Below, piece by piece: positions 14,021-35,836 of a DNA stretch of 52,851 bases. The stretch comes from a virus (taxonomy: Duplodnaviria; Caudoviricetes). The DNA lies in the IMG/VR virus record IMGVR_UViG_3300043753_000018, positions 1-52,851 of that record; one strand, 5' to 3'. A program made the translations under genes and the position numbers. The notes beneath the pieces were generated by a model. It did no database searches, was not told the origin of the DNA, and was given only the letters and a program-made list of their open reading frames with translations. Position 1 is the first letter of the stretch. Each line of letters opens with the position of its first letter.

Positions 14021-14500
14021 TCAGTGCTGCGGGGCGACCGAGCAGCCGTATGAGGCGTCGGTGCCCCGGAGGTTGCCGCCGATGTCGCCGATCTGCGCGA
14101 GCGGCACGGGCGCCCGGTAGGCGTGGGTGCCGGCGTCGATGTGGTCGTCGTGGCGGTAGATCGTCCCGTCCGTTCCTGACGCGTGGGTGATCAGCTCACC
14201 GGCCACCGTGGTGGTGGCGGTCCAGCTCATCGTGCCGTCGCCGTTGTCCCGGTAGGTGATCGCGCACTGCGGGTCGCCGGGGTAGGTGAACGTCGGCGCC
14301 GCGGCGGCTGGCACCGCTGCCGCGGGCGTGGTGGTGGTCGCGCTGTGCGGCGCCGTCGTTGTGCTCGCCGCCGGCCGGGCAGGGCTGGCCGCGGCCGGCT
14401 TGCTCAGGCTCTGCTTTGCGCCGGAGACCATGCCCGCGACCACGACCGGCACGCACACCAGCACCGCGATCCCGATCCCCATCTTCTTGCCCGTGCTCAT
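14021..14500 (-). CDS. Membrane-anchored/secreted protein (moron) antisense within tail operon
   Basis: Basic N terminus plus hydrophobic helix, Ala/Pro/Thr linker, compact beta domain with two Cys; GC3-rich on minus strand. Confidence 0.75.
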   Translation of the reverse strand: MSTGKKMGIGIAVLVCVPVVVAGMVSGAKQSLSKPAAASPARPAASTTTAPHSATTTTPAAAVPAAAAPTFTYPGDPQCAITYRDNGDGTMSWTATTTVAGELITHASGTDGTIYRHDDHIDAGTHAYRAPVPLAQIGDIGGNLRGTDASYGCSVAPQH

Positions 14501-14616
14501 CGGCGGCCTCGCGCCCTGCTGGCTCAACTCTCCCCCTCGGCCCGGCAGTCCCTGTGGGCTCAGCACGGTAGCCCCTTCCGCGCGCCCGCGCACCTGATTC
14601 GCACCGAGGAGGGCAC

Positions 14617-17544: not shown

Positions 17545-17556
17545 TGGGAGGGCATC

Positions 17557-20500
17557 GTGAGTAACCCGCTGCTCGGGGGCTTGGTCGACCCGTTCACCGC
17601 GGCGACCATCAACGCCGCGGTGTGGAACGCCTCCAGTGGCTCCGGCGTCAGTCTCGCGGCGCCGGGCCGGGTGGCGGTGCAGGCCACCAGCGCCTACCCA
17701 GCGCTCGGCGCCGGTGGCCCTTACGAGGCGACCGGGCAGTCCCTGTCCGCCCGCGTCACCCCGGCGCTCGCCGGGACCGGTGGCGCCGTGGTCCAGACGA
17801 TCTTCAAGGTCGAGCAGGACGCGAGCGACACGGCGTACTTCGTCTGCCAGCCGGGCAGCTTGTGGCAGGCCGTCGTCATCAACGCAGGCGTGTACACCAC
17901 GGTCACGCTGCCTGCTTACGATCCGACCGCGCACGCCTGGTGGCAGCTCACCGAGGCCTCGGGGCAGTGGCTGTTCTCGGTCAGCGCTGACGGCTTCAGC
18001 TGGGCCCAGCTGGCGTCGATCCCGTACACCTGGTCCCCGCACGCGGTGTCGGTCTACTACATCTCCGGGTCCTCGGTGGTCACCGGCGAGACCGCCTACC
18101 TGGAGCACGTCAACACCCCGGCCGGGTCCGGCTCGCTGCTGCCGAGCTGGCCGCAGGTCAGGTTCGAGGTCGCCTTCAACACCGGTGGCAGCATGACGAA
18201 CCAGCCGTCGTACGTCGATCTCTCCTCGCGGCTGCGCGGCAGCTGGTCGGCTGAACTCGCCGGCAGGCAGTACGAACTCGACCAGATCCAGAGCGGCCAG
18301 GCGACGCTCAGCTTGTGGAACCTCGACGGGGCGCTTGACCCGACGAACTCCTCCTCCCCGTACTACCCGGGCGTCGTGCCCATGCGGTCCTGCCGCCTCC
18401 AGGCCGTGTGGCCGCCGACCCGCAACCTGTTCCAGCCGGCCTACGCCTCCGGGACCGGCGGCAGCTGGTACGCCTGGCTGGGCACCGCTGCCCCGGCGAC
18501 GGGTCTCGCGCCGGCGCCCACCGGGCACACCACCGCGCTCGCCTGGACGTTCCCCGTCACGAGCAGCGGCGCGGGCGGCTGGCCACTCGTGACCGGCGCC
18601 ACCAGCACCGGTGCGGACGCCACGGCGTGGCCGGTCGTCGGCGGTCAGCCGTACGCCCTGTCGCTGTGGCTGTCGCGCTCCACGGGCGGCGACCCCACGG
18701 TGATCGCGACGCCATACATCCTCTGGTACGACCAGACCGGCGCGCAGATCGGTGAGGTGGGTACCACTGTCACGGTGCCGGTCCAGCCGGCTTGGGCACA
18801 GGGCACCCTCACCGCAACCGCCCCAGCGACTGCCGTCTCCGCGCGCATCGCCTGCTGGCTAGGCAACACCTCGACCACCGCCGTCAACACCTTCTACATC
18901 ACCGCGATGCAGCTGGAGCAGTCCGCCGCGGTGACGCCGTGGACGGCGGGCGGGGTGATCTACCCGATGTGGAGCGGGTACGTGGAGCGGTGGCCAGCGG
19001 TGTGGGCCCAGCAGGGCACCTACGGCACGATCGAGCTGACGTGCGTGGACCTTCTTGCGGGGCTGAGTGATTTCACGCTCCAGCCCTCGTTTCAGGCTCA
19101 GTTGCAGGCGCTCGGCCCGAGCATGCTGTATCCGCTCGATGAGGGGCAGGGGGCCAGCCAGTTCGCCGACGCGACCGGCCAGCGAAGTGCGCGCTTCCCG
19201 TGGGCGGCGCCGAACGGCGGGGCGGGGGCGTCGATCACGTCCGGCACGTCAGTGACGGGCAGCGGCTTCGTGGGTGCGCCGGGGCCGGTGACGACGATCT
19301 CCAACCCGACGCCCGGCGTCAACGCGGCGTCGCAGGCGATGTACATCAGCGCCCCGTGGGCCGGCCCGTGGGGGCCGCCTACGAGCGGCGGCTGGACCCG
19401 CGTGATCAGCTTCCGGACGCCCGTCACCTCAGTAGCCACGCTGATGGTGGTGTGGGCGGCCTCGGGGCCCGGCGCGTTCGGGTCGGGGCAAGCTGGCAGC
19501 CAGGCGTACTTGCAGATGGGCATCGACTCCAGCGGACACTTCGGCGCGGCGATCAGCAACGCCGCGGGTACCGCCACGACATCCGTCAGCGTGCCGGATT
19601 TCTCGTGCCTGGACGGGAATTGGCACACAGCGGTCATCCAACTCTCGTCCGACGGCAAAACGTTCACGGTGGCCTGCGACAACCACGGCTACCAGGCCAC
19701 CACCGCGAACGACTACCACCCGACCGGCTGCGTCAACGACACGGTCGGCGTGCTCCTCTTCAACAGCGCCGCCTACGAGTCGTTCAGCGGAGACGTCGCC
19801 TACATCACCGAATTCCCTTACGCCATCGGCAATGTGGCGGCGTTCGACCTCGGCAACGGGGTCTCCATGGGCTGGGCTGGGGAGAGCAGCGCGGCCCGGG
19901 CTCAGCGGATCCTGACGATGGCGGGCTACGGCGGCTCCATCTCGGCCGTGAGTGCCACCACGGCCATGGGTGGCGCCAATCTCGGTGGGACGGACGCCAT
20001 GAGCGCCCTGCAGTTGGTCGCGGACAGCGAGGCCGGGCAGGTTTTCGTGGACGCGTCCGGGACGCTGTGGCTGACGGGCCGGCGCTGGCGCTACATGCAG
20101 GCGACTGCCACCGCGGTGTTCGGGGAGGAGCAGGCGTCCGGCGAGATCCCGTACCTGGGCGACATCACTGTGGATTTCGACCCGACGCATATCTACAACG
20201 CGGCCGCGGTGACCAACGTGGTGGCGCCCGGGTCGCCGGACCAGCCCGTGGCGACCGCAGCCAACTTGGCGTCGCAGGCGGCTTACCTGCCGCGGACCCT
20301 GCCGCGCAGCATCAACGTGCAGGACACCACGCAGCCGGCGGTGGCCGCGCAGTACCTGGTGCAGCAGTACGGGCAGCCGCTGGCGCGTGTCTCGCAGGTG
20401 ACGGTGGATCCGGCGAGCAACCCGGCGCTCTGGCCGGCCGTGCTCGGCTTGGGCTTCGGCTCCCGGGTGGCGCTGAACCGCCGGCCGGGCGTCGCGCCTG

Positions 20501-20991
20501 AGGTTTCCCTCCAGCAGTTCGCGGAGCATCTGACCTGGAACGGTGACAACCAAGGGAAGCTCCAGCTGGCCCTGCAGCTCACCCCTGCGGCGCCGTTCAC
20601 CGGCTGGGGGCTGGCCGCACCCATGCACACCACGCTGGCGGCCCCGGCGACCGCTGGCACCAACACGATCACCCTCTCGCCGCTGTCCGGCTCCGCGAGC
20701 AACACCGCGGCGTCCGCACTGCCGGCGGGGACCGTGCTGACGGTCGGCTACGGCACCGCGGCCGCCGAGACCGTGACCGTGGCGCCGGGCGGCGTCGCCA
20801 CCACCAGCCCCGGCTACACCAGCGTCGTCGTCACCCTGACCGCCAACCTCGCCAGCAACCACGCGTCGGGCGCGACCGTCTGCCAGCCCCTGCCGGGCAC
20901 CGTCACGCTGCCGAGCACGGTCAGCTACCCGACCGGCCTGGACACCGGAGCCACCCTGACCGCCACCGGCGGCCCCCGCGCCGCCTACTGA
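17557..20991 (+). CDS. Large minor tail/tail-tip protein (lectin/CBM-like, LamG-like and hub-like regions)
   Basis: Follows TMP; GRQYELDQIQSGQATLSLWNLDGALDP motif; YPLDE...WHTAV LamG-like; DSEAGQVFVDASG. Confidence 0.85.
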   Translation: MSNPLLGGLVDPFTAATINAAVWNASSGSGVSLAAPGRVAVQATSAYPALGAGGPYEATGQSLSARVTPALAGTGGAVVQTIFKVEQDASDTAYFVCQPGSLWQAVVINAGVYTTVTLPAYDPTAHAWWQLTEASGQWLFSVSADGFSWAQLASIPYTWSPHAVSVYYISGSSVVTGETAYLEHVNTPAGSGSLLPSWPQVRFEVAFNTGGSMTNQPSYVDLSSRLRGSWSAELAGRQYELDQIQSGQATLSLWNLDGALDPTNSSSPYYPGVVPMRSCRLQAVWPPTRNLFQPAYASGTGGSWYAWLGTAAPATGLAPAPTGHTTALAWTFPVTSSGAGGWPLVTGATSTGADATAWPVVGGQPYALSLWLSRSTGGDPTVIATPYILWYDQTGAQIGEVGTTVTVPVQPAWAQGTLTATAPATAVSARIACWLGNTSTTAVNTFYITAMQLEQSAAVTPWTAGGVIYPMWSGYVERWPAVWAQQGTYGTIELTCVDLLAGLSDFTLQPSFQAQLQALGPSMLYPLDEGQGASQFADATGQRSARFPWAAPNGGAGASITSGTSVTGSGFVGAPGPVTTISNPTPGVNAASQAMYISAPWAGPWGPPTSGGWTRVISFRTPVTSVATLMVVWAASGPGAFGSGQAGSQAYLQMGIDSSGHFGAAISNAAGTATTSVSVPDFSCLDGNWHTAVIQLSSDGKTFTVACDNHGYQATTANDYHPTGCVNDTVGVLLFNSAAYESFSGDVAYITEFPYAIGNVAAFDLGNGVSMGWAGESSAARAQRILTMAGYGGSISAVSATTAMGGANLGGTDAMSALQLVADSEAGQVFVDASGTLWLTGRRWRYMQATATAVFGEEQASGEIPYLGDITVDFDPTHIYNAAAVTNVVAPGSPDQPVATAANLASQAAYLPRTLPRSINVQDTTQPAVAAQYLVQQYGQPLARVSQVTVDPASNPALWPAVLGLGFGSRVALNRRPGVAPEVSLQQFAEHLTWNGDNQGKLQLALQLTPAAPFTGWGLAAPMHTTLAAPATAGTNTITLSPLSGSASNTAASALPAGTVLTVGYGTAAAETVTVAPGGVATTSPGYTSVVVTLTANLASNHASGATVCQPLPGTVTLPSTVSYPTGLDTGATLTATGGPRAAY

Positions 20992-22461: not shown

Positions 22462-22799
22462 GCCGGGTCAGCGAGTTCAACGAGCGCCTGGCGGTCCGGG
22501 CGACGCGGGCGTTCGGCAGCATGTGGACGACCTACGGCCTGTTCCTGTACGGGTTCCTGCCGGTCCTGCTGCCCGGCGCGATGACCGCGCTCCTGTACTG
22601 GTCGAACACGGTGCAGTTGTGGAGCTTGCCGCTGCTGATGGTCGGCCAGTCCGTCCTCGGCCGCGCCGCTGAGCGCCAGGCACGCGAGACCCATGACGCA
22701 GTACTGGAGGAACTCGCGCTTCTCCGTGCCGAACGCAGTCGGCAGCCTGCCGACGCTGCCGCACTCGCTGATACCAACACCCCACCCCTGGAGGACTGA
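22458..22799 (+). CDS. DUF1003-like two-TM membrane protein (holin candidate)
   Basis: NERLA..TRAFGSMW, two hydrophobic segments, QLWSLPLLMVGQ; coupled to endolysin. Confidence 0.7.
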   Translation: MSRVSEFNERLAVRATRAFGSMWTTYGLFLYGFLPVLLPGAMTALLYWSNTVQLWSLPLLMVGQSVLGRAAERQARETHDAVLEELALLRAERSRQPADAAALADTNTPPLED

Positions 22800-23695
22800 T
22801 GGGCATCTACGGCCAGGACTGGGCCAGCTACCAGCCCGCACAGCCGAGCACGACCGGCCTGAACTTCGCCTTCGTCAAGATCACCGAAGGCATGACCTAC
22901 ACCAACCCCGAGTGGACCAGCCAGCGGGACACCGCCCGCGCCGCGGGCCTGGTGGTGGGCTACTACCACTACCCGGACATGACCCACGCGCCGGAGACCG
23001 AGGCGGACCACTTCCTCTCGCTCGCGCAGCCGCAGCCCGGCGAGATGCTGTGCCTGGACTGGGAGGGCTACGACACCACCAACTCGGCCGTGCCGCACGC
23101 CACCCAGCTCACCTACAAGGAGACGTTCCTCCGCCACCTGAAGGCGGCGGCGCCGCACCAGCCGGTCGGCCTGTACTGCAATGTCGACTACTGGGAGAAC
23201 GTCGACACCACGGGGTTCTCCCAGGACTTCCTGTGGATCGCGACCGCGGGCCTGCCGGCCGGGCAGCCCGGGATCAAGGCGAACTGGCTGTTCCACCAGT
23301 ACTCCAGCTCTGGCGGCGCGGATCAGGACTTCTGCCACCTGGGGAGCACGGCGGAGCTACGGTCGTGGGCGCTGGGCTTCCAGCCTGCCCCGACGCCGGC
23401 CCCTGCTCCGGCTCCCGCCCCGGCTCCCGCGCCGAAGCCGACCCCGCAGCCGTCCCACCCTGCGTGGCCCGGGGAGTACCTGCGGGTGCAGTCCCCGATG
23501 CTGCATGACGGCAACGTCCGCACCTGGCAGCAGCGCATGCACGACCGCGGCTGGAGCATCACGGTCGACGGCTGGTACGGGCCCGCCTCGGCGAGCATCT
23601 GCCGCCAGTTCCAGCAGCAGAAGCGCCTGACCGTGGACGGCATCGTCGGCCCGCAGACGTGGGACGCGGCCTGGACTGACCTGGTTACCCGGTAG
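22799..23695 (+). CDS. Endolysin: GH25 muramidase plus peptidoglycan-binding domain
   Basis: GQDWASYQ, FVKITEG, GYYHY, LDWE, WLFHQY; PAPA linker; VDGWYGP...FQ...VDGIVGPQTW. Confidence 0.93.
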   Translation: MGIYGQDWASYQPAQPSTTGLNFAFVKITEGMTYTNPEWTSQRDTARAAGLVVGYYHYPDMTHAPETEADHFLSLAQPQPGEMLCLDWEGYDTTNSAVPHATQLTYKETFLRHLKAAAPHQPVGLYCNVDYWENVDTTGFSQDFLWIATAGLPAGQPGIKANWLFHQYSSSGGADQDFCHLGSTAELRSWALGFQPAPTPAPAPAPAPAPAPKPTPQPSHPAWPGEYLRVQSPMLHDGNVRTWQQRMHDRGWSITVDGWYGPASASICRQFQQQKRLTVDGIVGPQTWDAAWTDLVTR

Positions 23696-23703
23696 GGGGC
23701 GGC

Positions 23704-24030
23704 GTGGATTCCACTGGCATCGTCGCCGTGGACGACCTGGTGATCTGGTCGGTGGCTCTCACGGCGATCGCCGGGTCTGCGGCTCTGCTCTGGCGCCTCA
23801 CCCGCGGTGTGCGGCGCCTCCTGAGCCGGCTGGACGAGTTCGTCGATGACTGGCAGGGGACGCCGGGTCGGCCCGGGGTCCCGGGGCACGAGGGGGTGAT
23901 GGCGCGGCTCTGCGGTATCGAGGATCGGCTCGCTGCGGTTGAGCACGAGCTCCATCCGAACTCGGGTGGCAGCTTGCGTGATGCCGTCGATCGGGTTGAT
24001 CAGCGCACTGCCCGGCTCGACCCCGCGTAG
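23704..24030 (+). CDS. Single-TM membrane protein of lysis cassette
   Basis: N-terminal TM; ELHPNSGGSLRDAVDR motif common after actinophage lysins. Confidence 0.75.
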   Translation: MDSTGIVAVDDLVIWSVALTAIAGSAALLWRLTRGVRRLLSRLDEFVDDWQGTPGRPGVPGHEGVMARLCGIEDRLAAVEHELHPNSGGSLRDAVDRVDQRTARLDPA

Positions 24031-24039
24031 ATCTGCCTC

Positions 24040-24069
24040 GCCCCCGTTCGCCTTCGGGCGGGCGGGGGC
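24040..24069. terminator. Bidirectional terminator hairpin
   Basis: gcccccgttcgcc-ttcg-ggcgggcgggggc between convergent genes. Confidence 0.75.
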
Positions 24070-24076
24070 GGCTTCG

Positions 24077-24235
24077 TCATGTCTGCTCACGGTGCTGGGG
24101 ACAGTGGCAGGTAGGCCATGGTCGGCGGCGACCGTAGAGCCCGGGGATTTGGCCGGGGGTGGTGTGGCACGGGGTGTGACCGTACTGCCGACCCTCGGGG
24201 GTGACCTTGTAGGTGCGGATGGTGATGGCGGACAT
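24077..24235 (-). CDS. Small hypothetical protein (CxCxxH)
   Basis: GGAG RBS before MSAITIRTYKV; C-terminal CHCPQH. Confidence 0.55.
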   Translation of the reverse strand: MSAITIRTYKVTPEGRQYGHTPCHTTPGQIPGLYGRRRPWPTCHCPQHREQT

Positions 24236-24312
24236 GGCTGCTCCAGGTGGCTTGGCTGGCCGGTTTGTCCATATTCCAACCGGTTGCACTGGCCATCCAT
24301 TCCCGGGATCGG

Positions 24313-24615
24313 CTACTCGCCCCGGGCCGCCCGCACGGACGCGTCCCACGCCTGCCAGAGCGTCGCCGGATCCTGAAGAGCAGGGTGCCGGCGCACCGCC
24401 GAAGCCGCCTCGGCCCGCACCTCACGCAGCCGGATCAGCTCCGCGTCCTCCTCCGGCTCCCACGACGCGCGCTCCAGCGACTGGTCCTCAAGGGGATAGA
24501 GCTCCCGGCGCCGAGCACTCACCTCGGCCACGTACTCACCGACCGCCTCATCGGCGGCGATGCGCTCGCGCTGGAGCTGAATGAGGTCGTCGGGCAGGGG
24601 GAGCGGGTCAGGCAC
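24313..24615 (-). CDS. Hypothetical helical protein
   Basis: LPDDLIQLQR...AVRRHP; GC3-rich. Confidence 0.65.
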   Translation of the reverse strand: MPDPLPLPDDLIQLQRERIAADEAVGEYVAEVSARRRELYPLEDQSLERASWEPEEDAELIRLREVRAEAASAVRRHPALQDPATLWQAWDASVRAARGE

Positions 24616-24843
24616 GGTCGGATCCTAGGGCAGAGGTCGGACGGACAGATGGCCACTCGCCGAAGCTGCGGCGGGCGACCCACATCATCATCGTACTGGC
24701 GTTCGATTAACTCTCGTCGCAGACACGCAGCCGCTCCCGTCCGGGTTCTGGCCAGCTGCCGTGGCAGCGCACGGCAGCGATCTACTGACGGAACGTCACT
24801 CGGCGGGCATACACTCGGCGCAGGGTCTTCGAGAGGGGATGCA

Positions 24844-25080
24844 GTGCCTGATACAGCACTCCGCACCGAGTTCGTCTACGACGTCCGCTACGTCCTCGCG
24901 CCCGACGGGGAGACCGCACATACCCGCCGCGTGACGGTCGTGGACCCCGATCCACAGCCGGGCATGGGCCCATCGCTCGGACGCATCCACCAGGCGCTCC
25001 GCGAGGCCATCGGCCGACCAGAGGTGCGGGAGGAGCTTCAGCTCCTCTGGGTGCGCGCCCCAGAGGACGCCGAGGCTTAG
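24844..25080 (+). CDS. Hypothetical protein
   Basis: GAGGGG RBS before GTG 24844. Confidence 0.55.
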   Translation: MPDTALRTEFVYDVRYVLAPDGETAHTRRVTVVDPDPQPGMGPSLGRIHQALREAIGRPEVREELQLLWVRAPEDAEA

Positions 25081-26114
25081 GAGCGCTGGCGGGCGTCGGC
25101 GAGGCGCATCGAGTAGAACGCGGCGTCGCGCGGGTACCCCTCCAGGCTGGCCAGGCCGCGTTCCAGCGCGTCGGCAGCCATGCTCCAGTCGCGTGCGGCG
25201 TGCGCGGCCTCGCCCAGCAGCAGCGTCGCCCGAGTCGGGGACAGCCAGTACAGCCAGCCAGGCCGCTCGCCCTCGTCCGGCACGCGCAGCGCCAGGTCGT
25301 AGGCCTCCTGGGCAAGGCGCCGCGCCAGATCCCGGTCACCGGCCGCCGCGGCAGCCATCGCCGCAGTGTGCTGTGCGATCGATTCCGCCGCCGGCGACAG
25401 CCGACCCGAGCCGCTGACCGCCGTCTCCGCAGTCCGCAGCGCCCGAACCGGGTCGCCGCCGCCGAGCGTGTAGTAGGCCCGCACCCGGGTGATCCAGCTC
25501 GCCATGTCCGCCGATCCCGCATCGAGCGACCAGCCGTGCGCCAGGTCGAGCCAGGACATTGCCGCCCCGTGTCGCCCCTGCCCGTGGGCTACCCAGCTGA
25601 GCCAGTGCGCGTGTTCGGCGGCGAGGAGCAGCAGCCGGTCCGCCGCTGGCCCCGCCGCGCCGGGGATGAGACGGGTGACCGCGTCAAGCTGGGAGCGGAC
25701 CACGGGCCACAGGTCGGCCCCAGAGCCGTCGTCCTCGGCGCGCCGGTGCTCGGAGAGGACACGGGCGATCCAGTCCGCGGCGCGTAGGTCGGTGCGGCCA
25801 GCGGTGTGGGCGCGGGCGATGCGCTCGGTCAGTTCCGGGTCGGGTGACCAGCTCGTGTCGGCGGTGGTGAGTCCCAGGAGCTCGGGCGGCACGCGTAGTC
25901 CCTCGGTGAGTCGGTGGATGACGGCCGCCTGCTCGATGCGGCGCCGGCCGCGCTCAATGAGGCTGATGTGCGATTGCGGCATGCCGATCAGCGCGCCGAG
26001 TTCCAGTTGGCTGATCCGGGCTGCTCGCCGGTACTCGCGGAGTACCGCGGCCCAGTCGGAGGCGGCCCAGGCGGCGCGCAGGCGGGGGTCCGCCCATGGT
26101 CCTGCATCAGGCAT
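25077..26114 (-). CDS. XRE-family HTH regulator with helical TPR-like C-terminal region
   Basis: LREYRRAARISQLELGALIGMPQSHISLIERGRR; helical repeats typical of Streptomyces XRE-TPR regulators. Confidence 0.85.
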   Translation of the reverse strand: MPDAGPWADPRLRAAWAASDWAAVLREYRRAARISQLELGALIGMPQSHISLIERGRRRIEQAAVIHRLTEGLRVPPELLGLTTADTSWSPDPELTERIARAHTAGRTDLRAADWIARVLSEHRRAEDDGSGADLWPVVRSQLDAVTRLIPGAAGPAADRLLLLAAEHAHWLSWVAHGQGRHGAAMSWLDLAHGWSLDAGSADMASWITRVRAYYTLGGGDPVRALRTAETAVSGSGRLSPAAESIAQHTAAMAAAAAGDRDLARRLAQEAYDLALRVPDEGERPGWLYWLSPTRATLLLGEAAHAARDWSMAADALERGLASLEGYPRDAAFYSMRLADARQRS

Positions 26115-26210
26115 GTCCTGACGATACGTCAGACGTATATCGCTGCGTATCGCATTCATCGCGTTTGGTGACGACGATCTGCCTCAGGATCTCCCGCCAA
26201 GAGGTGACAG

Positions 26211-26399
26211 ATGAGCAGAGCAGCGTCCACGGTCGTACAGGCTGAGCCGCCGCGACCCCTGACCTACGAGCAGCTGCACGAGCAACAGTGCATTGCCTGC
26301 TCGGCTACCACCGACCTGCGGCCGGCCGGGCACCGCACGGTGAACGGTCTCGCGTGGGCCGTGGTCGCCTGCCCCAAGCACGAGGGAGAGGCCTCCTGA
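26211..26399 (+). CDS. Small zinc-finger-like protein
   Basis: CIAC...CPKH; GAGGTG RBS; divergent from XRE regulator. Confidence 0.7.
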   Translation: MSRAASTVVQAEPPRPLTYEQLHEQQCIACSATTDLRPAGHRTVNGLAWAVVACPKHEGEAS

Positions 26400-27331
26400 T
26401 GAAGGCGACGACCGATCCCCGGTACGCGGAACTTCGCGCCGCCGTCAGCGACTTCATCAAGAAGCACGGGTTGCACCCGGACCCGGACACATACCTGGCG
26501 CACGGGTACGTGGACCTGTGCCTCCGGGGGTGGCCGACCGCGGCTGGCGCCCCCCTTCGGCTGGCGGCGGAGTGGGCGATCTGGACCTGGCTGGCCGATG
26601 ACGTCTTCGACCAGGAACTCCGCGATGCCTCTCTGAAGGACATCAACGAGTTCGTCCTGGCACTGCTGGACACCGCGACCGAGGCCGACCAACCAAGCAC
26701 TGTCGACCATCCGATCGTGCAGGCCCTGGCGGACCTGGTCCGCCAGACCCGCCAGGTGATGCCGGCCTACTGGTGGCGCCGGTATCACGAGCAGCTGGCC
26801 GCCTGGATCCACGCAGCATCCTCGAAGCTGACGCTGTTCCTGCGGACGGGCCACACTCCGACCCTTCGCGAGTACATGGGGGTCCGGCCGGCCGACGGCG
26901 GGATGCTGCTCGCCGCGATGTGGACCGAGCTGGCGGAGCAGTGCATCACGCCCGACTGGCGTAACCCCGCGGTCCAGGGCATGCTCAGCGCGTTCTCGAC
27001 GTGCGGATGCCTGGCCAACGACCTTGCGGCCACCGGCAGCCAGGACACGTTCACCGCGGTCTACGCCCTGGTCAACAGCGAGGCGATGACCGTGCTGGAG
27101 GCCCGGCAGCACGTGGCCACCCTGCTCCGGGCCGAGGAGAAGCGCTTCTGGTGGCTCTACACCTCGGTCCGGCGCGACTTCGACGAGGACCCGCAGCCCC
27201 CCGCGATCGGCGAACTGGTGATGAGCACGTCCCGGTTCGCGCTCATCATCGACCGTTTCCGCTGTGCACTGGCCGAGTGGACCGCGGGCAGCTCCCGGTA
27301 CGCGCCGCCGACGCAGCCCCAGGCGGTGTGA
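26399..27331 (+). CDS. Class I terpene synthase/cyclase-like protein
   Basis: DDVFD (DDxxD), YMGVRPADGG (pyrophosphate-sensor Arg region), degenerate NSE motif NDLAATGSQ, WTAGSSRY (WxxxxxRY); about 310 aa. Confidence 0.85.
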   Translation: MKATTDPRYAELRAAVSDFIKKHGLHPDPDTYLAHGYVDLCLRGWPTAAGAPLRLAAEWAIWTWLADDVFDQELRDASLKDINEFVLALLDTATEADQPSTVDHPIVQALADLVRQTRQVMPAYWWRRYHEQLAAWIHAASSKLTLFLRTGHTPTLREYMGVRPADGGMLLAAMWTELAEQCITPDWRNPAVQGMLSAFSTCGCLANDLAATGSQDTFTAVYALVNSEAMTVLEARQHVATLLRAEEKRFWWLYTSVRRDFDEDPQPPAIGELVMSTSRFALIIDRFRCALAEWTAGSSRYAPPTQPQAV

Positions 27332-27549
27332 TGATGCCCGACTCGACCTCGACGGCGATCGTCGTCAACGTGGCGCTCACCCCCGCTAAGGGCTACCAAC
27401 TGGAGATCGACGGGTCCGACGCCCATCCGTTCATCACGGAGGCGGACGCCACTGAGAACCTGCACGCAGTCGTCGATGACTGCGTGCGGGGGGCTCTGGG
27501 CTTCCCCTCGCGCGTGGCACTCGCAATCAACATCATCGAGACCCAGTGA
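27331..27549 (+). CDS. Hypothetical protein
   Basis: TGATG coupling to terpene synthase gene. Confidence 0.6.
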   Translation: MMPDSTSTAIVVNVALTPAKGYQLEIDGSDAHPFITEADATENLHAVVDDCVRGALGFPSRVALAINIIETQ

Positions 27550-27797
27550 TGACTCAGGCGCCTACGTTCGGCGCGAGCCTGGAGCGGTCGTACGACCCCG
27601 CCGGCCTGCTCCAGGACCTGGCCGTCATGCAGGACGCGATGGACGCGGTGAGGCGCGGCCCCGGCGGCCTGGAGGCGGTGCGGGAGCTGTTGATCCTGAC
27701 CACCCTCACCCGGCTGGTCATGCGCCGCCTCGTGCTCGCCTCACTGGCAACGGCGATGACGCGCCACGCCGAGGCGGTGAACCCGCCGACACGGTGA
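27546..27797 (+). CDS. Hypothetical protein
   Basis: GTGA overlap with previous ORF. Confidence 0.55.
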   Translation: MMTQAPTFGASLERSYDPAGLLQDLAVMQDAMDAVRRGPGGLEAVRELLILTTLTRLVMRRLVLASLATAMTRHAEAVNPPTR

Positions 27798-27929
27798 CCC
27801 CTGATCGGGCTGCCCGGGCCGTACGCCCCCTTCATCCCGGGCAGCCTGCTCCACCCGCTGGTGGAGCGGCCGTGCCGGGTGCTCGCCCACCGGCAGTGGG
27901 CGAGCACTGCGCAGCCGGCACGGCCACAA

Positions 27930-28169
27930 CTACTCCCAGAACAGCCGCAGGATCGGCACGTCGAGCGCGCGGGCGAGGGCGGTGAGGTCGTCCAGGGTGG
28001 GCGGGGCTTGGGCGAGCTCCCAGCGGCCGATGGTGCGCCGGTCGACGCCAGCCAGTTCGGCGAGGCGCTCTTGGCTGAGGCCGCGGTGCTGCCGGAGTCG
28101 CCGAATGCGGTCGCCGACATCGCGGCGCTGCTGGAGCTGGTGGTCGTCGGGGGTTCGGGTCGGCGGCAC
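27930..28169 (-). CDS. XRE-family HTH protein
   Basis: IRRLRQHRGLSQERLAELAGVDRRTIGRWE...LARALDV. Confidence 0.88.
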   Translation of the reverse strand: MPPTRTPDDHQLQQRRDVGDRIRRLRQHRGLSQERLAELAGVDRRTIGRWELAQAPPTLDDLTALARALDVPILRLFWE

Positions 28170-28225
28170 CCGATGACCGTCACCCGTTCATGATCAAAAG
28201 TCTGTACGTATAAGGCGTCACTTGA

Positions 28226-28241
28226 TCGAACCAAGGTTCGG
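28226..28241. promoter_or_regulatory. LexA (SOS) box-like site with adjacent -10 element TATAGT
   Basis: TCGAAC-CAAG-GTTCGG against the actinobacterial consensus TCGAAC-N4-GTTCGA, in an AT-rich intergenic region. Confidence 0.7.
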
Positions 28242-28294
28242 ATATAGTTCGAGCACCGCAGCAGTCCCGGGGGGACCGAGACCCGGAGCACACC

Positions 28295-28531
28295 CTGAGC
28301 ACCCCGCAGCACCCTGCCGACCAGCACCGCACCCCGGGCTGGAGTCTCGCCCAACCGTTCAATCGAGAAGCAGCAGCGAACGATCTCGTCGAAGCCTCCC
28401 GGCTGATCACCCAGCTCGCCAAGAGCGACGACGGAAGCCAGGCTCACGCGGTCGCCCTCCAAGAGGCATGCCGCATTTCGAGTCAGATCTCCGCACGCAT
28501 CACTCAGCATCTGCCACCGAGCGAGCAGTAG
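28295..28531 (+). CDS. Putative 78-aa SOS-controlled protein with CTG start
   Basis: GGAG 6 nt before CTG; open frame (M)STPQHPADQ...HLPPSEQ fills the gap; absent from ORF track. Confidence 0.45.
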   Translation: MSTPQHPADQHRTPGWSLAQPFNREAAANDLVEASRLITQLAKSDDGSQAHAVALQEACRISSQISARITQHLPPSEQ

Positions 28532-28549
28532 GGGCCCGCGGGGTCGAGG

Positions 28550-29530
28550 TCAGGTGCCCGCAGCTGCTTCTTGCTGCCCCCACCAGTACCCCAGCTGGGC
28601 CAGCGAGTTTGCGCCCGAGACGCGCTTGATCTCCGCGATCTGGGAATTCACCACGCGCGGGCTGATGTTGAGCGCCCGGGCGATGCCGGCCTGAGCGGTG
28701 CCAGCTACCAATAGCTGGATCACCTCACGCTGCTGCTCGGTCAGGATGGCATCGGAGGGCAGCTGGGCGCCTCGCCAGACGGACGCCCGGGCCCAGTCCC
28801 TGTCGAACAGCTGCGCAGCGTAGTGCACGACCCCTGGATCGTGCAGGATCAGCGCTCGGATCGGATCCGCGTCGGGAGCCGGTGGCGTGTGGTCGGTGAC
28901 GACGGCCGTGCGGCGGTCGACGATGATCGCGCGCAGGAACGACTCGTCCAGTGTGCGCACATGTGCCCCGGCTACTGTGACCCGCTGGACGTGCCCGGCC
29001 GTGGCCGCGTCTTGGCGTGCGGACATGCGGTAGAGCGTGCGCATCGCGACGCCGCGCTCCAGGGCGGCCAGGTCGCGAGAGAGCGCGAGCGCGAGGGTAT
29101 CTGCCGGCCGCGGTCCGCCAGGCTGAGCGGCGAGGATCTCTTGTGTGGCGCTGGCGACGAGCTCGGACAGTCTGGCGTTGATGGTGTCCAGGCCGGAGAT
29201 GTACTCGACGGCTCCGCGGACCAGCTGCGGCTCGGCGCGCTGGTAGGCGACGGCCAGGTGTCGGAGCCGCTCGGGGAGCGCGCTTGCCTCCGCCATTGCG
29301 GCGCCGATCTCGCGGTACATCCGCTCGCGCTTCTCGGTCAGGACCTCCAAGGGGTCCCGGGCGATGAACCTGTCGGTTGGGCCGTGGGGGTGAGGGAGTA
29401 CAAGCCCGTACGCGAGCAGCTCGGCGAGTGCTGGGCTGTCCAGGTCGGGCGCTGGCACCCGGTGCGCGAGCAGGGCGTAGAGCGACTCGGCCTCTGGGCT
29501 GAGGGTGGTCAGCTCGGGCGGTGTTGACAC
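28550..29530 (-). CDS. TrmB-like/PLD-like sensor domain plus LuxR HTH transcriptional regulator
   Basis: N-terminal HTH-like (ESLYALL...LLAYGLV); EILAAQP...RGVAMRTLY...AIIVDRRTAV...LFDRDWARA; C-terminal LTEQQREVIQLLVAG...IARALNIS. Confidence 0.85.
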   Translation of the reverse strand: MSTPPELTTLSPEAESLYALLAHRVPAPDLDSPALAELLAYGLVLPHPHGPTDRFIARDPLEVLTEKRERMYREIGAAMAEASALPERLRHLAVAYQRAEPQLVRGAVEYISGLDTINARLSELVASATQEILAAQPGGPRPADTLALALSRDLAALERGVAMRTLYRMSARQDAATAGHVQRVTVAGAHVRTLDESFLRAIIVDRRTAVVTDHTPPAPDADPIRALILHDPGVVHYAAQLFDRDWARASVWRGAQLPSDAILTEQQREVIQLLVAGTAQAGIARALNISPRVVNSQIAEIKRVSGANSLAQLGYWWGQQEAAAGT

Positions 29531-29550
29531 GTCGTCTCGGTGCCTCTCGC

Positions 29551-29578
29551 GCGAAGTATCGCAGTGCGAACTTTCGCA
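29551..29578. promoter_or_regulatory. Tandem imperfect palindromes between regulator and peptide gene (candidate operator)
   Basis: GCGAAGTATCGCA and TGCGAACTTTCGCA. Confidence 0.45.
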
Positions 29579-29692
29579 GGCTACGGCCCTTGATGACCCT
29601 CTGTCGAGATCGTCAGACTGGGTGTGCAGGCCCGGCCGCACTGGCCGCGGTATCTCCCCCAACGCGCCCAAGATCGGACACAGGAGGCCCAC

Positions 29693-29881
29693 ATGCGCCA
29701 CATGCGGAATGTGCTCGCAGCTCTCGCCCTGATCGCCGCCTGCTGGGCGGCCGTTGCAGCGGCCGTCGCGCCCGTCACTACCCAGGCGGACTCCGGCTGG
29801 AACGTCGTGCAGCCGTCCGATACGGGCTGGAACTCGGCGCCGGCCCCGACGATCCTCGTCTCGGACACCGGCTGGAACTAG
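29693..29881 (+). CDS. Secreted pre-peptide with three D(S/T)GWN repeats (candidate signalling peptide precursor)
   Basis: AGGAGG RBS; Sec-type signal (MRHMRNVLAALALIAACWAAVAAA), then ADSGWN, SDTGWN, SDTGWN-stop. Confidence 0.8.
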   Translation: MRHMRNVLAALALIAACWAAVAAAVAPVTTQADSGWNVVQPSDTGWNSAPAPTILVSDTGWN

Positions 29882-30170
29882 CAGGCACGTCCGGGCGCGG
29901 ACTCGTTCCGCTGACCGGGCCCAGAAACGCCCGTGGCAGTGCCCGCTCTACTCGGGCGCTGCCACGGGGGATCGAGGAGGCTGGGAGTTGCCTGTGTGGC
30001 AATCCTAGCCAGACCTCATTCCGTTCCGCGTCCGCCGTCTGGCGGGGCGGGATGGCCGCCAGGGTAGACGACCGGCCCCCTCTCACCCTGGCGGATCGGC
30101 GCCCCCAGCTGCTGCTCGTAGCTGGGGGCGCCGTCGTGTGCGCGTATGGACTGACCTGCGGAAACACCGT

Positions 30171-30467
30171 GATCATTTGGGGGTTTCACAGGAGACGATC
30201 TTGAGTGGGGAGACTGTGGTCGGACTGAGCGGGAGCGTAGGCGGAGCGTAGAGTCCGAGCGGCCATTAGGACTGCTCGGGCTCATGACCTGCCCAGATGT
30301 CCCATCCAGTGCAGGTTGGGGGCGCTCCTCGGGGCCGCTTCAAAGTTCCTGAACTTCATCATCGCTGAAGTCATCCGCCACCACGAGGCGATCGCCAGCG
30401 ATACCGAGACCAGCTGAAACGACTCAGGCTGACGGGCCGTCATCCTGATCTGTAGATCATTTGGGGG
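30171..30467. other. Putative attP region
   Basis: Largely non-coding, downstream of integrase; 13-bp direct repeat GATCATTTGGGGG at 30171 and 30455 resembles arm-type sites. Confidence 0.55.
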
Positions 30468-30490
30468 AGATTTCGGAGATCAACTCCGGA

Positions 30491-31768
30491 TCACTCCCAG
30501 ATGGTCTCCCAGCCGAGATTCCGCATCGCGCGCTGGAACGTCTCCTCCAACCCCTCCAGGCGACGCTCCCGCATCCGCGGAGTCGGCCGGCGGTAGACGC
30601 CCTTGATGCCATGGTACTTATGCCCCATCTGCTCGTGGGCCAACACCTCGGGCACCTCCAGCTCAGCCTGCAAGCTGTCGTGGAACCTGCGCAGGGTGCG
30701 CGCCGTCAGCCCCGGGAACAGCGGCTCCCACGCCTCGTGCGGTGGCCGGCCGCGGCCCCGCTCACGCTCCTCCCGGCCGTCGGCCGCCGGTCGCAGCGCG
30801 GTGTGCCACGTCGACCGCCACCACCACTTTCCCGTGGGAGTCGTGAACATCAGGTCGTGAGGAGACGTCGCCTTGCGCTCGTCGAGCAGCAGCGCGAGGA
30901 ACGGCGGTATGTCGATGTCCCGCGCGCTCTGCGGGTTCTTCGGGGCTTCGAGGCGCCGTACCGCCGTCCGCTTCCTCTCCTCGTTGTAGACGTAGTACTC
31001 GGCGAGCACGCCCTGGTCCTTGTCAACGCGCACGATGGGGCACTCGAACAGGGCGCCGTCGTGACGCTGCCGGCGGGTGAGGAGAGCGTTCGACTTCGCG
31101 AGGCCGATGCACTCCTCGTAGCGCATGCCGGTCCACGCCTCCGTGACGATCTTGAGCCCGTTCCACGGACCCAGGCGCCGCGCGACCTGGAGCACGACCT
31201 CCGGCGGTGGCAGCGCCTCGTCGTCGGCGTCCTGCTGCTGCGTCTGCGCCTGTTTGACGGTGGTGTGCAGACCGGTCAGCCGGCGGTTGTATAGCGGGTT
31301 GACCTGAAGCCGCTTCGCGTCGACCGCACCGGTAAGCATGTGGGACATCAGCCCGACCGCGCCGCGCACCGTGCTCTCCGCGTAGGTCTTGCTGCGGGCG
31401 CGCGCCCACGTCTCCACATCGAACCAGTTGAACTCGATCAGCTTGGTGTGCTTCCACTGCGGGAGGACGTGGTAGGTGAGCAGCTCGCGCCGGTTCATCG
31501 TCGTCCGACCGCGGGGTGAGTCTCCCTGGGCCTTCAGCCAGATCTCCGCCCACTCACCGAACGACGTGCGGGCCAGCTCCGGATCTACCCAGCGGCCGGC
31601 CCGAATCTGGGCCTCTTGCTCGTCGCCCCAGTCCTCCGCAGTGGTCTTGGTCGAGAAGCCAGGTTCCGAGCCCCAGGTGCCGTCTGGCTTTTTGTACCGG
31701 GCGCGCCACGTGTACTGCTTGGTCTGCCTGCCGTTTTTGACCTTGTAGACCTTCTCGGCGTAGGCCAT
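30491..31768 (-). CDS. int: Tyrosine integrase
   Basis: N-terminal arm-binding WRARYKKPDG...GF; TGMRYEE; RTLRR; QMGH...VY. Confidence 0.93.
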   Translation of the reverse strand: MAYAEKVYKVKNGRQTKQYTWRARYKKPDGTWGSEPGFSTKTTAEDWGDEQEAQIRAGRWVDPELARTSFGEWAEIWLKAQGDSPRGRTTMNRRELLTYHVLPQWKHTKLIEFNWFDVETWARARSKTYAESTVRGAVGLMSHMLTGAVDAKRLQVNPLYNRRLTGLHTTVKQAQTQQQDADDEALPPPEVVLQVARRLGPWNGLKIVTEAWTGMRYEECIGLAKSNALLTRRQRHDGALFECPIVRVDKDQGVLAEYYVYNEERKRTAVRRLEAPKNPQSARDIDIPPFLALLLDERKATSPHDLMFTTPTGKWWWRSTWHTALRPAADGREERERGRGRPPHEAWEPLFPGLTARTLRRFHDSLQAELEVPEVLAHEQMGHKYHGIKGVYRRPTPRMRERRLEGLEETFQRAMRNLGWETIWE

Positions 31769-31851
31769 GTGGTTCCTCCCCTTGCGCTTCCGCGTGACGG
31801 CGGCCGGGCCCGCGTGCCGCGGGACCCCGCCGTCATGGTGGCGCCGTGGTG

Positions 31852-32031
31852 CTACACGGCGGATGGCTGCTGAGTCTTCGGGTCCGACTGCGCGCTGACC
31901 ACCTGGGCGAGCCGCTCGACCTGCTCGTCGCTGAGCAGTGAGGACACCCAGAGAACCGGCTCGCATCCGGACTCTCTGTCGACGTAGGCAAGTCCGCCGT
32001 AGGGGATGTTCACAACCTGCTGTACCCGCAC
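31852..32031 (-). CDS. Small hypothetical protein between repressor and integrase
   Basis: 59-aa frame MRVQQVVNIPYGGLAYVDRE...; GAGGGG RBS; below ORF track cut-off. Confidence 0.5.
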   Translation of the reverse strand: MRVQQVVNIPYGGLAYVDRESGCEPVLWVSSLLSDEQVERLAQVVSAQSDPKTQQPSAV

Positions 32032-32167
32032 GGGGTACCCCCTCTTACCTGGTTGGGTGGCCCCCTCTCAGGTAGTGGTCATGCTGTCACACAGGCGTAC
32101 AGCCCCGCAGCTGATCGTGATCGTGTTGAAGGTAAAGCATTCAACTAGATGTCGACATGATCAGTCG

Positions 32168-32701
32168 TCAGTCTTCGTCGGAGAAGATGTCGCGAGCGGC
32201 TCGCTGCAGCTGCGCCCACTTCCGCAGACGGGCGCGCATCTGCTCTGGGCTCGCGTTCGGCTGCTTCCCTCGCTTGAGGATCAGCACTGCGACGCTGTCT
32301 GGATCGTCCGGCGCAAGGTCGATCACGTCGCCAGCGACGACCTGGCCACCCAGCAAGGCCAGCTTCACGTGCTCCGACAGGTCGTCAAGCAGGGTGTCGA
32401 CCTCAGGAGAGCCCTGGTTCGCCCCCTCCGCTGCCGGGGCAGGCGTGGGAGCCGCGCCAGCTTCGGAGAGAGTCGGCTCCTCGCCGGCCAGGACGGCCAC
32501 GATGGACTCCGCAGTCCACCCGAGTGCCTGCGCGATGCTCCGGTGGGATAGCTGTGGACGCGCGTAGCTGCGGCCGCGCTCAACCCCCTGCACCGCACTT
32601 CTGCCGAGGCCGGCGGCCTCGGCCAGCTCGATCTGCGACATGCCGATGGCCTGTCGTCGCTGCCGGATGGCTTCGCCGAGCCGCTCCCAGTCCTGCTCCA
32701 T
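32168..32701 (-). CDS. Immunity repressor (XRE HTH, no S24 peptidase domain)
   Basis: LGEAIRQRRQAIGMSQIELAEAAGLGRSAVQGVERG; divergent from Cro-like gene; upstream of int. Confidence 0.85.
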   Translation of the reverse strand: MEQDWERLGEAIRQRRQAIGMSQIELAEAAGLGRSAVQGVERGRSYARPQLSHRSIAQALGWTAESIVAVLAGEEPTLSEAGAAPTPAPAAEGANQGSPEVDTLLDDLSEHVKLALLGGQVVAGDVIDLAPDDPDSVAVLILKRGKQPNASPEQMRARLRKWAQLQRAARDIFSDED

Positions 32702-32913
32702 GAGCACATCATGCCCTACCTGCATGCAACCACGGCATACGGATCCAGCCCTTTTGGCCTGCGAAGCGAGCCTTCGAATGTGACCGCTGGGTTGCATGGG
32801 CTCAATCCGCGCCACGGAGAGCTCATAGAGAGAGCTCCATTCTGTAGGGAGTTCGTAGCCTCAGTGAGCTTCAGATGCTTGCAGAGTGAGCCTCGGCGTG
32901 CTTTGCTTCTCTC
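32702..32913. promoter_or_regulatory. Divergent lysis-lysogeny switch region
   Basis: Lower-GC intergenic region; recurring GTGAGC(C/T)TC and GAGAGCTC motifs; CATGCAACC/GGTTGCATG inverted pair. Confidence 0.6.
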
Positions 32914-33120
32914 GTGACACCGAACGGCACGGCGATCCGGAGCCTCCGAGAGGCTCGCGGAGTGAGCCTACGAACCCTTGCAGCTCGAACTGGTAGGGAT
33001 CGTGGCCATCTCTCGCGGGTGGAGCGGGGGCTCGCGGGTGCGAGCGAGGAGATGCTCCGCGAGATAGCGCGGGTCCTCGGGGTGCCGGTCGCCGCCATCA
33101 ACCGAGAGGAACTGCCGTGA
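32914..33120 (+). CDS. Cro-like XRE HTH protein
   Basis: IRSLREARGVSLRTLAARTGRDRGHLSRVERG. Confidence 0.88.
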   Translation: MTPNGTAIRSLREARGVSLRTLAARTGRDRGHLSRVERGLAGASEEMLREIARVLGVPVAAINREELP

Positions 33121-34858: not shown

Positions 34859-35836
34859 ATGAGCACTGAGATTGTGCGGGCCGCGCCCGTTACCGCGTCG
34901 CTGCAGGACATGGTCCGGTACGCCGAGCACCTCGCGAACGCCAACCTGCTGCCCGGCCAGTACCGCAAGCAGCCCGCCAACGTGCTGTACGCCATGGAGT
35001 ACGGCCGCACCCTCGGCATCACCCCGCTGGCCGCGATCACCGGCATCCACGTCATCGAGGGCAAGCCCTCGGCCAGCGCCGCCCTGATCTCCGGCCTGGT
35101 CCGGCAGGCCGGCCACAAGCTCCGGGTGAAGGGCGACGGCCAGTCCGCCACCGCCCAGATCATCCGCAGCGACGACCCCGACTTCGTCTACGAGGTCACC
35201 TGGGAACTCCGCCGGAACCCGAACGGCAACCCGAACGCGGAGGACGCCAAGCTCCTGAACAAGGAGGTGTGGCAGAAGTACCCGGCCTCGATGCTGAAGG
35301 CCCGCGCGATCACCGCGGTGGCCCGGGATGCGTGCGAGGAGGTGCTGTTCGGGCTGCACTACACGCCGGAGGAGCTCGACGTGTACGTCGACCAGGACGG
35401 CAACCCGGTGGACGCGCCGGTGCAGCCGCTGCGCGCGGTCGATGGTGAGCGTCGAGGCCGTGACTTCCTGCAGGAGGCGTACAAGGCCACGGACACGGAC
35501 ACCGTTCGGCGCCTGTGGCAGGAGGCCAAGGCCGACGGTCGTCCGGAGGACTACCTGGCGAGCATCGCCGAGGTCGGCCGCGACCTTGCTGCCGAGGCTG
35601 CTGCTGCTTCGGCCTCGGCTTCTGCGCCGGCCGAGCAGGTGGTGGACGCCGAGATCGTCGGCGAGCAGGACGAGCACACTGCCGCGCTGGACGCGCTGCG
35701 GGCCGCCGCGCTCGCCGCCGGCATCGCGGCCACGCTCGACACCGACTTCAAGGACTCGTACGGCGTCCCGCCGGCCGAGGCCAGCGTCGAGCAGCTCCAG
35801 CAGATGACCGCGATCCTGGCGGGGGCCGCCGCGTGA
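34859..35836 (+). CDS. RecT-like ssDNA annealing protein
   Basis: LLPGQYRKQPANVL...GIHVIEGKPS...WQKYPASMLKARA...GLHYTPEEL. Confidence 0.85.
   Translation: MSTEIVRAAPVTASLQDMVRYAEHLANANLLPGQYRKQPANVLYAMEYGRTLGITPLAAITGIHVIEGKPSASAALISGLVRQAGHKLRVKGDGQSATAQIIRSDDPDFVYEVTWELRRNPNGNPNAEDAKLLNKEVWQKYPASMLKARAITAVARDACEEVLFGLHYTPEELDVYVDQDGNPVDAPVQPLRAVDGERRGRDFLQEAYKATDTDTVRRLWQEAKADGRPEDYLASIAEVGRDLAAEAAAASASASAPAEQVVDAEIVGEQDEHTAALDALRAAALAAGIAATLDTDFKDSYGVPPAEASVEQLQQMTAILAGAAA

Follow-up and report, generated by a model that had tools for sequence, protein, structure and literature searches.

A class I terpene-synthase-fold gene as accessory cargo of a probable temperate Kitasatospora phage

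Introduction

The known cargo of tailed phages includes toxins, bacteriocins, and some metabolic genes, and the terpenes of soil actinomycetes serve as odors, antibiotics, and animal attractants. Secondary-metabolite cargo of temperate phages has been described in the form of prophage biosynthetic clusters (Dragos et al., 10.1101/2020.10.01.322628). According to the available portions of that study, these clusters are overwhelmingly bacteriocins, with single cases of a nonribosomal peptide synthetase-like, an ectoine, a type 3 polyketide synthase, and a homoserine-lactone cluster, and the available main text mentions no terpene cluster of phage origin. As for viruses in general, PMC13524828 states that terpene biosynthesis has been examined in only four genomes and cites Jung et al. 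2023 and Park et al. 2025 on giant viruses, the group from which the published viral terpene synthases come. A search of the full-text literature, with subscription journals largely outside its reach, returned no report of a terpene synthase as bacteriophage or prophage cargo. Here, we describe a gene with the fold of a class I terpene synthase (TS) in a 52,851-nucleotide (nt) DNA of a tailed virus (IMG/VR record IMGVR_UViG_3300043753_000018, positions 1 to 52,851; this whole stretch is called the window below).

We are highly confident that the terpene-synthase-fold gene is real and that a phage carries it, and it represents a rare case of a bacterial-type gene of this class as accessory cargo of a temperate actinophage. 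Our preferred reading goes further and holds that the gene encodes a phage-borne class I terpene synthase kept as optional cargo, Mg2+-dependent catalysis on farnesyl diphosphate (FPP) of the host included; we put its probability at roughly 0.55.

Results

The TS open reading frame (ORF) is intact from the ATG at 26399 to the TGA at 27329 to 27331 and encodes a protein of 310 amino acids (aa). The initial annotation of the window had proposed this ORF together with a set of class I cyclase motifs, and we recovered its coordinates and every named motif in the translation: DDVFD (D67 to D71), the segment Y159..R163-P-A-D166-G167-G168, N207-D208-L, and WTAGSSRY (W294 to R300-Y301). A search with the Pfam profile Terpene_syn_C_2 (PF19086), which had been suggested as a check, gave a clear match (E value of 4.2e-25; 89.1 bits against a cut-off of 23.7) that spans residues 59 to 249 and profile positions 2 to 199 out of 199, and Terpene_synth_C (PF03936) also scored above its cut-off (E value of 4.1e-7; 30.0 bits against 26.3). 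T-muurolol synthase was the top match in a sequence search of PDB chains (E value of 3.9e-12), which also returned a Streptomyces diterpene synthase and the pentalenene, cubebol, geosmin, and epi-isozizaene synthases. The likeness to class I terpene cyclases such as the pentalenene synthase family, which had been pointed out, is confined to the superfamily: the protein falls outside the pentalenene synthase equivalog NF045811, with 34.2 bits against a cut-off of 675. PHROGs contain no family for the protein, the one match being at chance level (E value of 0.021).

The AlphaFold2 model of the protein, built from a 50-sequence alignment, is all-helical with 14 helices and has a mean pLDDT of 93.4 and a pTM of 0.90. 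Nearly all of the matches listed in a Foldseek search of the PDB were bacterial class I cyclases, together with one fungal protein (TM scores of 0.73 to 0.85 at 16 to 24% identity), and the first was T-muurolol synthase (9hqi; TM score of 0.83). We confidently predict the class I terpene-cyclase alpha bundle for this protein, the isoprenoid-synthase fold on which the initial annotation had staked its proposal.

We then analyzed the catalytic residues. In a HMMER alignment with T-muurolol synthase, DDVFD falls on DDQCD, R163 on the sensor Arg, and RY on RY, and NDLAATGSQ falls on NDVLSYPKE, such that Ala211 replaces the Ser and Gln215 the Glu of the NSE triad; the triad is indeed degenerate, as had been claimed. 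Across an alignment of 50 clade members (mean column identity of 42%, about 50% sequence divergence), D67, D68, and D71 of the DDxxD motif were present in 50, 49, and 50 sequences, respectively, and R163, D166, and G167 of the sensor segment in 50, 50, and 49. The second-site pair was just as constant (N207 in 50, D208 in 49), and so was the C-terminal pair (R300 in 49, Y301 in 48). The Ser position of the NSE triad is occupied by Ala in 39 members, by Ser or Thr in 5, and by Gly in 3, with a gap in the other 3, and an acid is found at position 216 in all 50 members (44 Asp and 6 Glu), directly before an invariant Phe. The Asn is followed by this acid after 7 to 20 residues, most often after 8, which is the canonical spacing, and after 9 in the phage copy.

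The phage copy departs from the clade consensus at 6 of the 90 columns with a conservation of 90% or more (A44G, P150T, R152H, L195M, A256S, and L284I), and none of these lies in a motif. Nei-Gojobori dN/dS values, which are probably inflated by codon bias, ranged from 0.18 to 0.53 among the 33 pairs listed and equaled 0.47 for the phage copy and its closest relative (bacterial locus L007), and the clade is under purifying, though not tight, selection. Since the odd NSE triad is common to this selectively maintained Kitasatospora clade, it does not represent a private decay of the phage copy: the second metal site has been rebuilt clade-wide. Broken copies were found in one genome (G003), as fragments and as one copy with an internal TAG.

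The distribution of the TS clade is narrow. A word-indexed search yielded 58 other proteins at 43 to 70% identity, all of the named ones from Kitasatospora, and an exhaustive search of 1.84 billion representatives yielded 176 matches at E values of ≤0.001, 23 at ≤1e-10, and 13 at ≤1e-30. Ordinary synthases share only about 25 to 30% identity with the clade, which appears small and sharply set off from them. Species-representative genomes contain 27 TS loci, 26 titled Kitasatospora and one Streptomyces sp. Within the genus of the closest relative, we found the clade in 12 of 121 genomes. Each of these has 1 to 8 matches at scattered chromosomal sites, a count that takes in fragments and the copy with an internal TAG. 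Two TS copies occur within a few kilobases of each other in L009 (4492 to 5547, minus strand, and 9953 to 11029, plus strand) and in L018 (8666 to 9781 and 9953 to 11089, plus strand), and these pairs point to local duplication in the clade.

Terpene cyclases had been described as unusual phage cargo, and our searches agree: tblastn of 50,697 phage records, from which the record of the window itself may be excluded, gave no TS match, an alignment-based scan added three contigs from IMG/VR, of which two are near-identical, and the sole match at an E value of ≤0.001 in BFVD was a giant-virus terpenoid synthase. A single-protein scan of IMG/VR retrieved no TS relative, pattern-based scans being liable to miss divergent copies. 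We then looked for related prophages and found relatives of the capsid protein at 59 to 60% identity in 4 of the 121 genomes of the genus; none of these four genomes contains a TS match at an E value of ≤1e-20, which makes TS an accessory cargo gene. In a tree of 66 rows, computed by a quick method without clade proteins shorter than 280 aa and without the reverse-strand translation P0002, the phage TS (P0001) groups with the chromosomal P0003 (support of 99), the viral copy of contig L002 with the metagenomic P0004, P0006, and P0010, and the viral copy of contig L003 with P0061 in a distant subclade. None of the three viral copies therefore has another as its nearest kin.

The TS cassette occupies the same slot, past lysis or tail genes, in other viral contigs and in some bacterial loci. 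In L002, an endolysin gene, an XRE-TPR regulator gene, a 62-aa gene, TS, and a Cro-like gene follow one another, and in L003 and L004, tape measure and tail genes are followed by a regulator gene and TS. Bacterial locus L024 has tail proteins in common with L003 and a weak GH25 (endolysin-type) match upstream, L023 has an endolysin gene 4 kb upstream of TS, and L007 has on its flanks a member of the holin-like family of the window and strong matches to two PHROG families (E values of 6e-159 and 2e-174). With phage lysis or tail genes within about 5 to 10 kb of TS, at least these three bacterial loci are prophage-like. The other 24 showed no phage genes when compared with the window and the viral contigs, a comparison that did not include a PHROG scan. 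A search for TerL (phrog_2) in five TS-rich genomes, that of L024 among them, gave nothing at an E value of ≤1e-10, the query being too narrow.

Two neighbors of bacterial copies deserve mention. L007 encodes a 730-aa protein (5283 to 7475, minus strand) 2.5 kb upstream of TS, the C-terminal 180 residues of which match the PHROG moron family of ADP-ribosyltransferase exoenzyme toxins (E value of 2e-21); this prophage-like region thus contains a further cargo gene. In L015, a gene for a homologue of the divalent-ion-tolerance protein CutA1 (10918 to 11238, plus strand; E value of 4e-32) overlaps the TS stop, and a member of the same cluster is also present in L006.

In the window, the TS operon sits between the endolysin and holin-like genes (22799 to 24030) and the integrase gene (Table 1). 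Lying outside the core modules, as a self-contained unit in a phage genome with a terminal repeat, TS is placed as expected of a phage moron. The initial annotation had described a translationally coupled four-gene operon divergent from an XRE regulator, and the sequence agrees, with four plus-strand genes (the 62-aa gene, TS, the 73-aa gene, and the 83-aa gene) joined by three stop-start overlaps and the regulator gene on the minus strand. Shine-Dalgarno-like purine runs are found 5' of the starts of the 62-aa gene and TS, the one before the ATG at 26211 being AGAGGTGA. The divergent intergenic region contains a perfect 15-nt palindrome (26124 to 26138), unique in the window, which is a candidate operator; the regulator probably starts at Met16 (26114), where its homologues begin. 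Downstream of the operon, the hairpin has a folding energy of -35.5 kcal/mol (z score of -3.2), none of 200 shuffled sequences folds as well, and it is likely the operon end. Two minus-strand genes (24313 to 24615 and the XRE regulator gene) lie between the lysis genes and the operon. None of the PADLOC models matches any of the four operon proteins. A search for polyprenyl synthases (PF00348) found none in the 52.8-kb record and was positive in all 14 control genomes, in line with the earlier statement that the genome has no prenyltransferase, so the substrate must come from the host.

TABLE 1 Features of the window discussed in the text
Feature	Position	Strand	Evidence	Remarks
Large terminase	1496-3070		PHROG/Pfam	
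Portal	3200-4729		PHROG/Pfam	
Major head protein	7686-9053		PHROG/Pfam	
Tape measure	14617-17544		PHROG/Pfam	
GH25 endolysin with peptidoglycan-binding domain	22799-23695	+	PHROG/Pfam	Bounds cargo region
Holin-like gene	23704-24030	+	PHROG/Pfam	Bounds cargo region
XRE-family HTH plus TPR-like regulator	25077-26159	-	Pfam, PHROG, model	Divergent from operon
Divergent intergenic region	26115-26210			Putative promoter site
62-aa gene, zinc-knuckle-like	26211-26399	+		Stop shares 1 nt with TS start
Terpene-synthase-fold gene (P0001, 310 aa)	26399-27331	+	Pfam, PDB search, AlphaFold2, clade alignment	
73-aa gene, no known family	27328-27549	+		Start (GTG 27328 or ATG 27331) overlaps TS stop
83-aa gene, no known family	27546-27797	+		Start (GTG 27546 or ATG 27549) overlaps stop of 73-aa gene
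G+C-rich hairpin, 13 bp	27806-27848	+		9 nt past 83-aa gene, no T tract
79-aa Cro/CI-type repressor-like gene	27930-28169	-	Pfam, PHROG	Convergent with operon
LuxR/GerE-type regulator, 383 aa, DUF7436/TrmB-like middle domain	28550-29701	-		Lysogeny region
Integrase (phrog_1)	30491-31966	-	PHROG	Bounds cargo and lysogeny region
RecT	34874-35836		PHROG/Pfam	

We next considered the products of the neighboring genes. Relatives of the 62-aa protein are encoded directly upstream of TS in 13 of 31 sources (the window and 30 loci), in one case as an in-frame remnant fused to TS. His23, Cys27, Cys30, and Cys54 are invariant among 12 sequences, a set that suggests a zinc knuckle. Scans with Pfam, PHROG, and PADLOC assigned the protein to no family, and the ESM Atlas places it among unnamed small proteins of actinomycetes. 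Prediction of a complex between TS and the 62-aa protein gave a score of 0.00 and a mark of 0.32, which is evidence neither way. The 73- and 83-aa proteins have no family in Pfam, PHROG, or PADLOC scans, and a homologue of the 83-aa gene lies downstream of TS in L007 (69% identity over 59 aa).

According to clustering, an XRE-family gene adjoins TS in 17 of the 30 loci. Nine of these regulators were scanned, and all nine contain a helix-turn-helix (HTH) domain, four with a weak TPR match and two with DUF5753. The phage regulator matches HTH_31/HTH_3 and is modeled as an HTH domain followed by a TPR-like superhelix (pLDDT of 88), whose likeness to PlcR, Rap, and ComR in Foldseek is weak (E values of 1e-3 to 7e-3) and ranks among generic TPR proteins. 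We also considered this regulator as a dedicated terpene receptor, an idea that was marked down because its family, which is spread across actinomycete genera at 58 to 85% identity, is far wider than the TS clade; being widespread without TS, the family is that of a general element regulator and not a TS-specific one. In the bacterial loci L028 and L030, relatives of the LuxR/GerE-type regulator of the lysogeny region are encoded in the vicinity of TS. Clusters further placed putative NUDIX genes near TS in 7 of the 30 loci and HAD-type hydrolase genes in 4, with Pfam checked on one member each; these genes lie 1.5 to 2.8 kb from TS, some of them on the other strand. Pfam and PHROG scans found no NUDIX or HAD gene in the phage operon.

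The window comes from a virus record classed with direct terminal repeats, for which CheckV estimates a completeness of 60. Its first and last 127 nt (1 to 127 and 52725 to 52851) are identical, and assembler overlaps commonly have this length. The repeat contains a tRNA-Gln(CTG) gene (46 to 120 and 52770 to 52844), probably one phage-encoded tRNA seen twice through the overlap of a circular assembly. The alternative that the repeat and its tRNA gene are attL and attR of an excised prophage was rejected because the integrase gene lies mid-record and the terminase gene close to the beginning, an arrangement in keeping with a circular or virion-ordered genome. A third ARAGORN match (48324 to 48410, minus strand), which overlaps an ORF start at its 3' edge, may be spurious.

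Contigs from a soil run, the possible source of the record, cover 23564 to 27186 (from the holin-like gene into TS) and 27314 to 33000 (from the TS end to beyond the integrase gene) with zero differences, and the depth is even, at about 29 to 40, across structural genes, tail genes, and cargo. Identical pieces of the tail region and of 25963 to 26585, the junction of the regulator gene, the 62-aa gene, and TS, are also present in a second study. Together, these findings make a misassembly unlikely. The G+C content is uniform at about 0.69 to 0.72 over 22 to 30 kb. With its full complement of head, tail, lysis, and integration genes, the carrier is a temperate siphovirus from soil, most likely with Kitasatospora as its host.

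Elsewhere in the window, a 1,144-aa protein encoded 3' of the tape measure gene (17557 to 20991, plus strand) matches phrog_5313, a family of unknown function, from end to end (E value of 1e-68) and presumably functions in the tail or in host recognition. The stretch from 10069 to 10508, where the head genes give way to the tail genes, holds four to five degenerate 66-nt tandem units that are 64 to 71% identical; they lie in overlapping ORFs of both strands and encode a repeated basic 22-aa unit. The G+C content falls to 0.63 inside the tape measure gene (14000 to 18000).

Discussion

We propose that the window carries a terpene synthase that is made from the prophage and acts on a host metabolite. 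Because two minus-strand genes stand between the late genes and the operon, which ends in a strong hairpin, the operon would be read from a promoter of its own in the divergent intergenic region, and the prophage would be its source of expression. Mg2+ held by D67, D68, and D71 and by N207 and D208 with the acidic D216 would bind the prenyl diphosphate of the host, and the size of the protein and its nearest relatives point to FPP as the likely substrate. The diphosphate would be clamped by R163 and R300/Y301 and then ionized to give a sesquiterpene-type product. The outcome would be a lysogenic conversion of the volatile or secondary-metabolite profile of the host, with whatever benefit this may bring.

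Several results weigh against such a reading. None of the seven NCBIfam matches to product-level models came near its cut-off (the best with 42.6 bits against 1200), so the product cannot be named, and the protein is, as far as its sequence tells, a superfamily member outside every named enzyme family. With the NSE/DTE triad defined as (N,D)Dxx(S,T)xxxE (PMC10509563), the phage segment N207-D-L-A-A211-T-G-S-Q215 does not fit, and its acid is one residue out of register with the clade mode. In the available text of the same paper, the six enzymes with a quoted NSE triad, all active on FPP or geranylgeranyl diphosphate, have both the Ser and the Glu, and a branch with deviating motifs is composed of low-yield or inactive enzymes. 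In the predicted structure, helix H stops at residue 210, which would leave the second metal site and its acid D216 on a loop. Moreover, dN/dS values of 0.2 to 0.5 are high for a tightly constrained enzyme. Finally, a simple consensus scan of 24000 to 30500, uninformative for an actinomycete phage of 70% G+C, found no sigma-70-like promoter; its single terminator-like match is inside TS, on the minus strand. We give ordinary Mg2+-dependent turnover of host FPP about even odds, the rest being shared by a changed chemistry, binding alone, and a role in signaling or defense.

The same deviations could mean that the protein is a pseudo-enzyme or ligand sensor, which has kept the fold, binds a diphosphate or terpenoid without turnover, and acts as a regulator with its small partners. 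This possibility draws on the incomplete NSE triad, on the broken copies of G003, and on the weak or absent activity that accompanies motif deviation in one actinobacterial branch (PMC10509563, available text), but the near-invariant Asp trio, N207/D208, the acid at 216, R163, and R300/Y301 are hard to explain without metal-diphosphate chemistry, and we hold it to be doubtful. The clade-wide replacement of Ser by Ala and the variable spacing of the second site, which suggest altered binding of Mg2+-B, are likewise compatible with a diverted chemistry, in which the protein would be a prenyl-diphosphate hydrolase or sink, release acyclic alcohols, or accept a noncanonical diphosphate, working in the bacterial loci with nearby phosphohydrolases. 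Although NUDIX and HAD genes do recur near TS loci, their distance and strand speak against a partnership, the phage operon lacks them, and DDxxD, the sensor Arg, and RY form the set of ordinary cyclases; we consider diverted chemistry unlikely.

Two other explanations concern the role and the origin of the gene rather than its chemistry. A terpene signal read by the adjacent HTH-TPR regulators, or a drain on FPP that blocks superinfecting phages, would accord with a patchy, scattered clade that reaches up to 8 matches in 12 of 121 genomes, with viral copies in three separate clades, with the XRE-family genes adjoining 17 of 30 loci and their HTH domains, and with the modeled HTH and TPR superhelix of the phage regulator. 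The likeness of that model to RNPP receptors is, however, weak and common to generic TPR proteins, the breadth of the regulator family argues against a dedicated receptor, and PADLOC is silent on all four operon proteins, which makes a signaling or defense module very unlikely in our view. As for host DNA misjoined to a phage, or a record that is in fact a chromosomal island, the metagenomic origin of the record, its completeness estimate, and the chromosomal location of most clade members could raise the suspicion; the bridging contigs and their depth on both sides, the identical pieces of the second study, the uniform G+C content, and the use of the same slot by other viral contigs render it extremely improbable.

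If the enzyme is active, as in our preferred reading of an optional, phage-borne synthase, a soil actinomycete would gain a terpene through lysogeny, and phages would offer a new route for natural-product genes. For enzymology, the clade is of interest as it keeps every diphosphate-binding residue, has a rebuilt second metal site, and is multicopy and mobile. A bolder view, which we consider quite unlikely, is that the XRE-HTH-TPR regulator, the small zinc-type protein, and the noncanonical TS make up a mobile chemical module traded among Kitasatospora phages and other elements, whose terpene would be a diffusible or volatile signal or weapon, read by the adjacent regulators to steer lysogeny or turned by the lysogen against competing phages or neighbors. 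Such a module, if real, would yield the first small-molecule, nonpeptide product of a tailed phage's own terpene synthase.

How does the phage TS compare with known systems? It resembles the bacterial sesquiterpene cyclases, namely, the T-muurolol synthase of Roseiflexus (9hqd/9hqi), pentalenene synthase (1ps1), epi-isozizaene synthase, and the N-terminal domain of geosmin synthase, in its single alpha domain of about 310 aa, in its fold, and in the alignment of DDxxD, the sensor Arg, ND, and RY. It differs from them in its low identity, in an NSE triad whose Ser and Glu are replaced, in an acid placed on a loop of variable length in the model, and in being carried by a phage. The Orpheovirus terpenoid synthase is also viral and has a terpene synthase fold (E value of 1.6e-6 in BFVD; TM scores of 0.66 to 0.72), but it belongs to a giant virus of eukaryotes and shares 13% identity, whereas the gene described here is of the bacterial type and resides in a tailed temperate phage. 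Closest of all are the Kitasatospora proteins annotated as "terpene synthase family protein" (such as P0003 from Kitasatospora sp. NPDC052896, at 70% identity), which belong to the same clade, have the same motif set, and, in L007, are accompanied by counterparts of the small genes on either side of the phage TS; in contrast to the phage TS, these copies are mostly chromosomal, and only some of them have recognizable phage neighbors.

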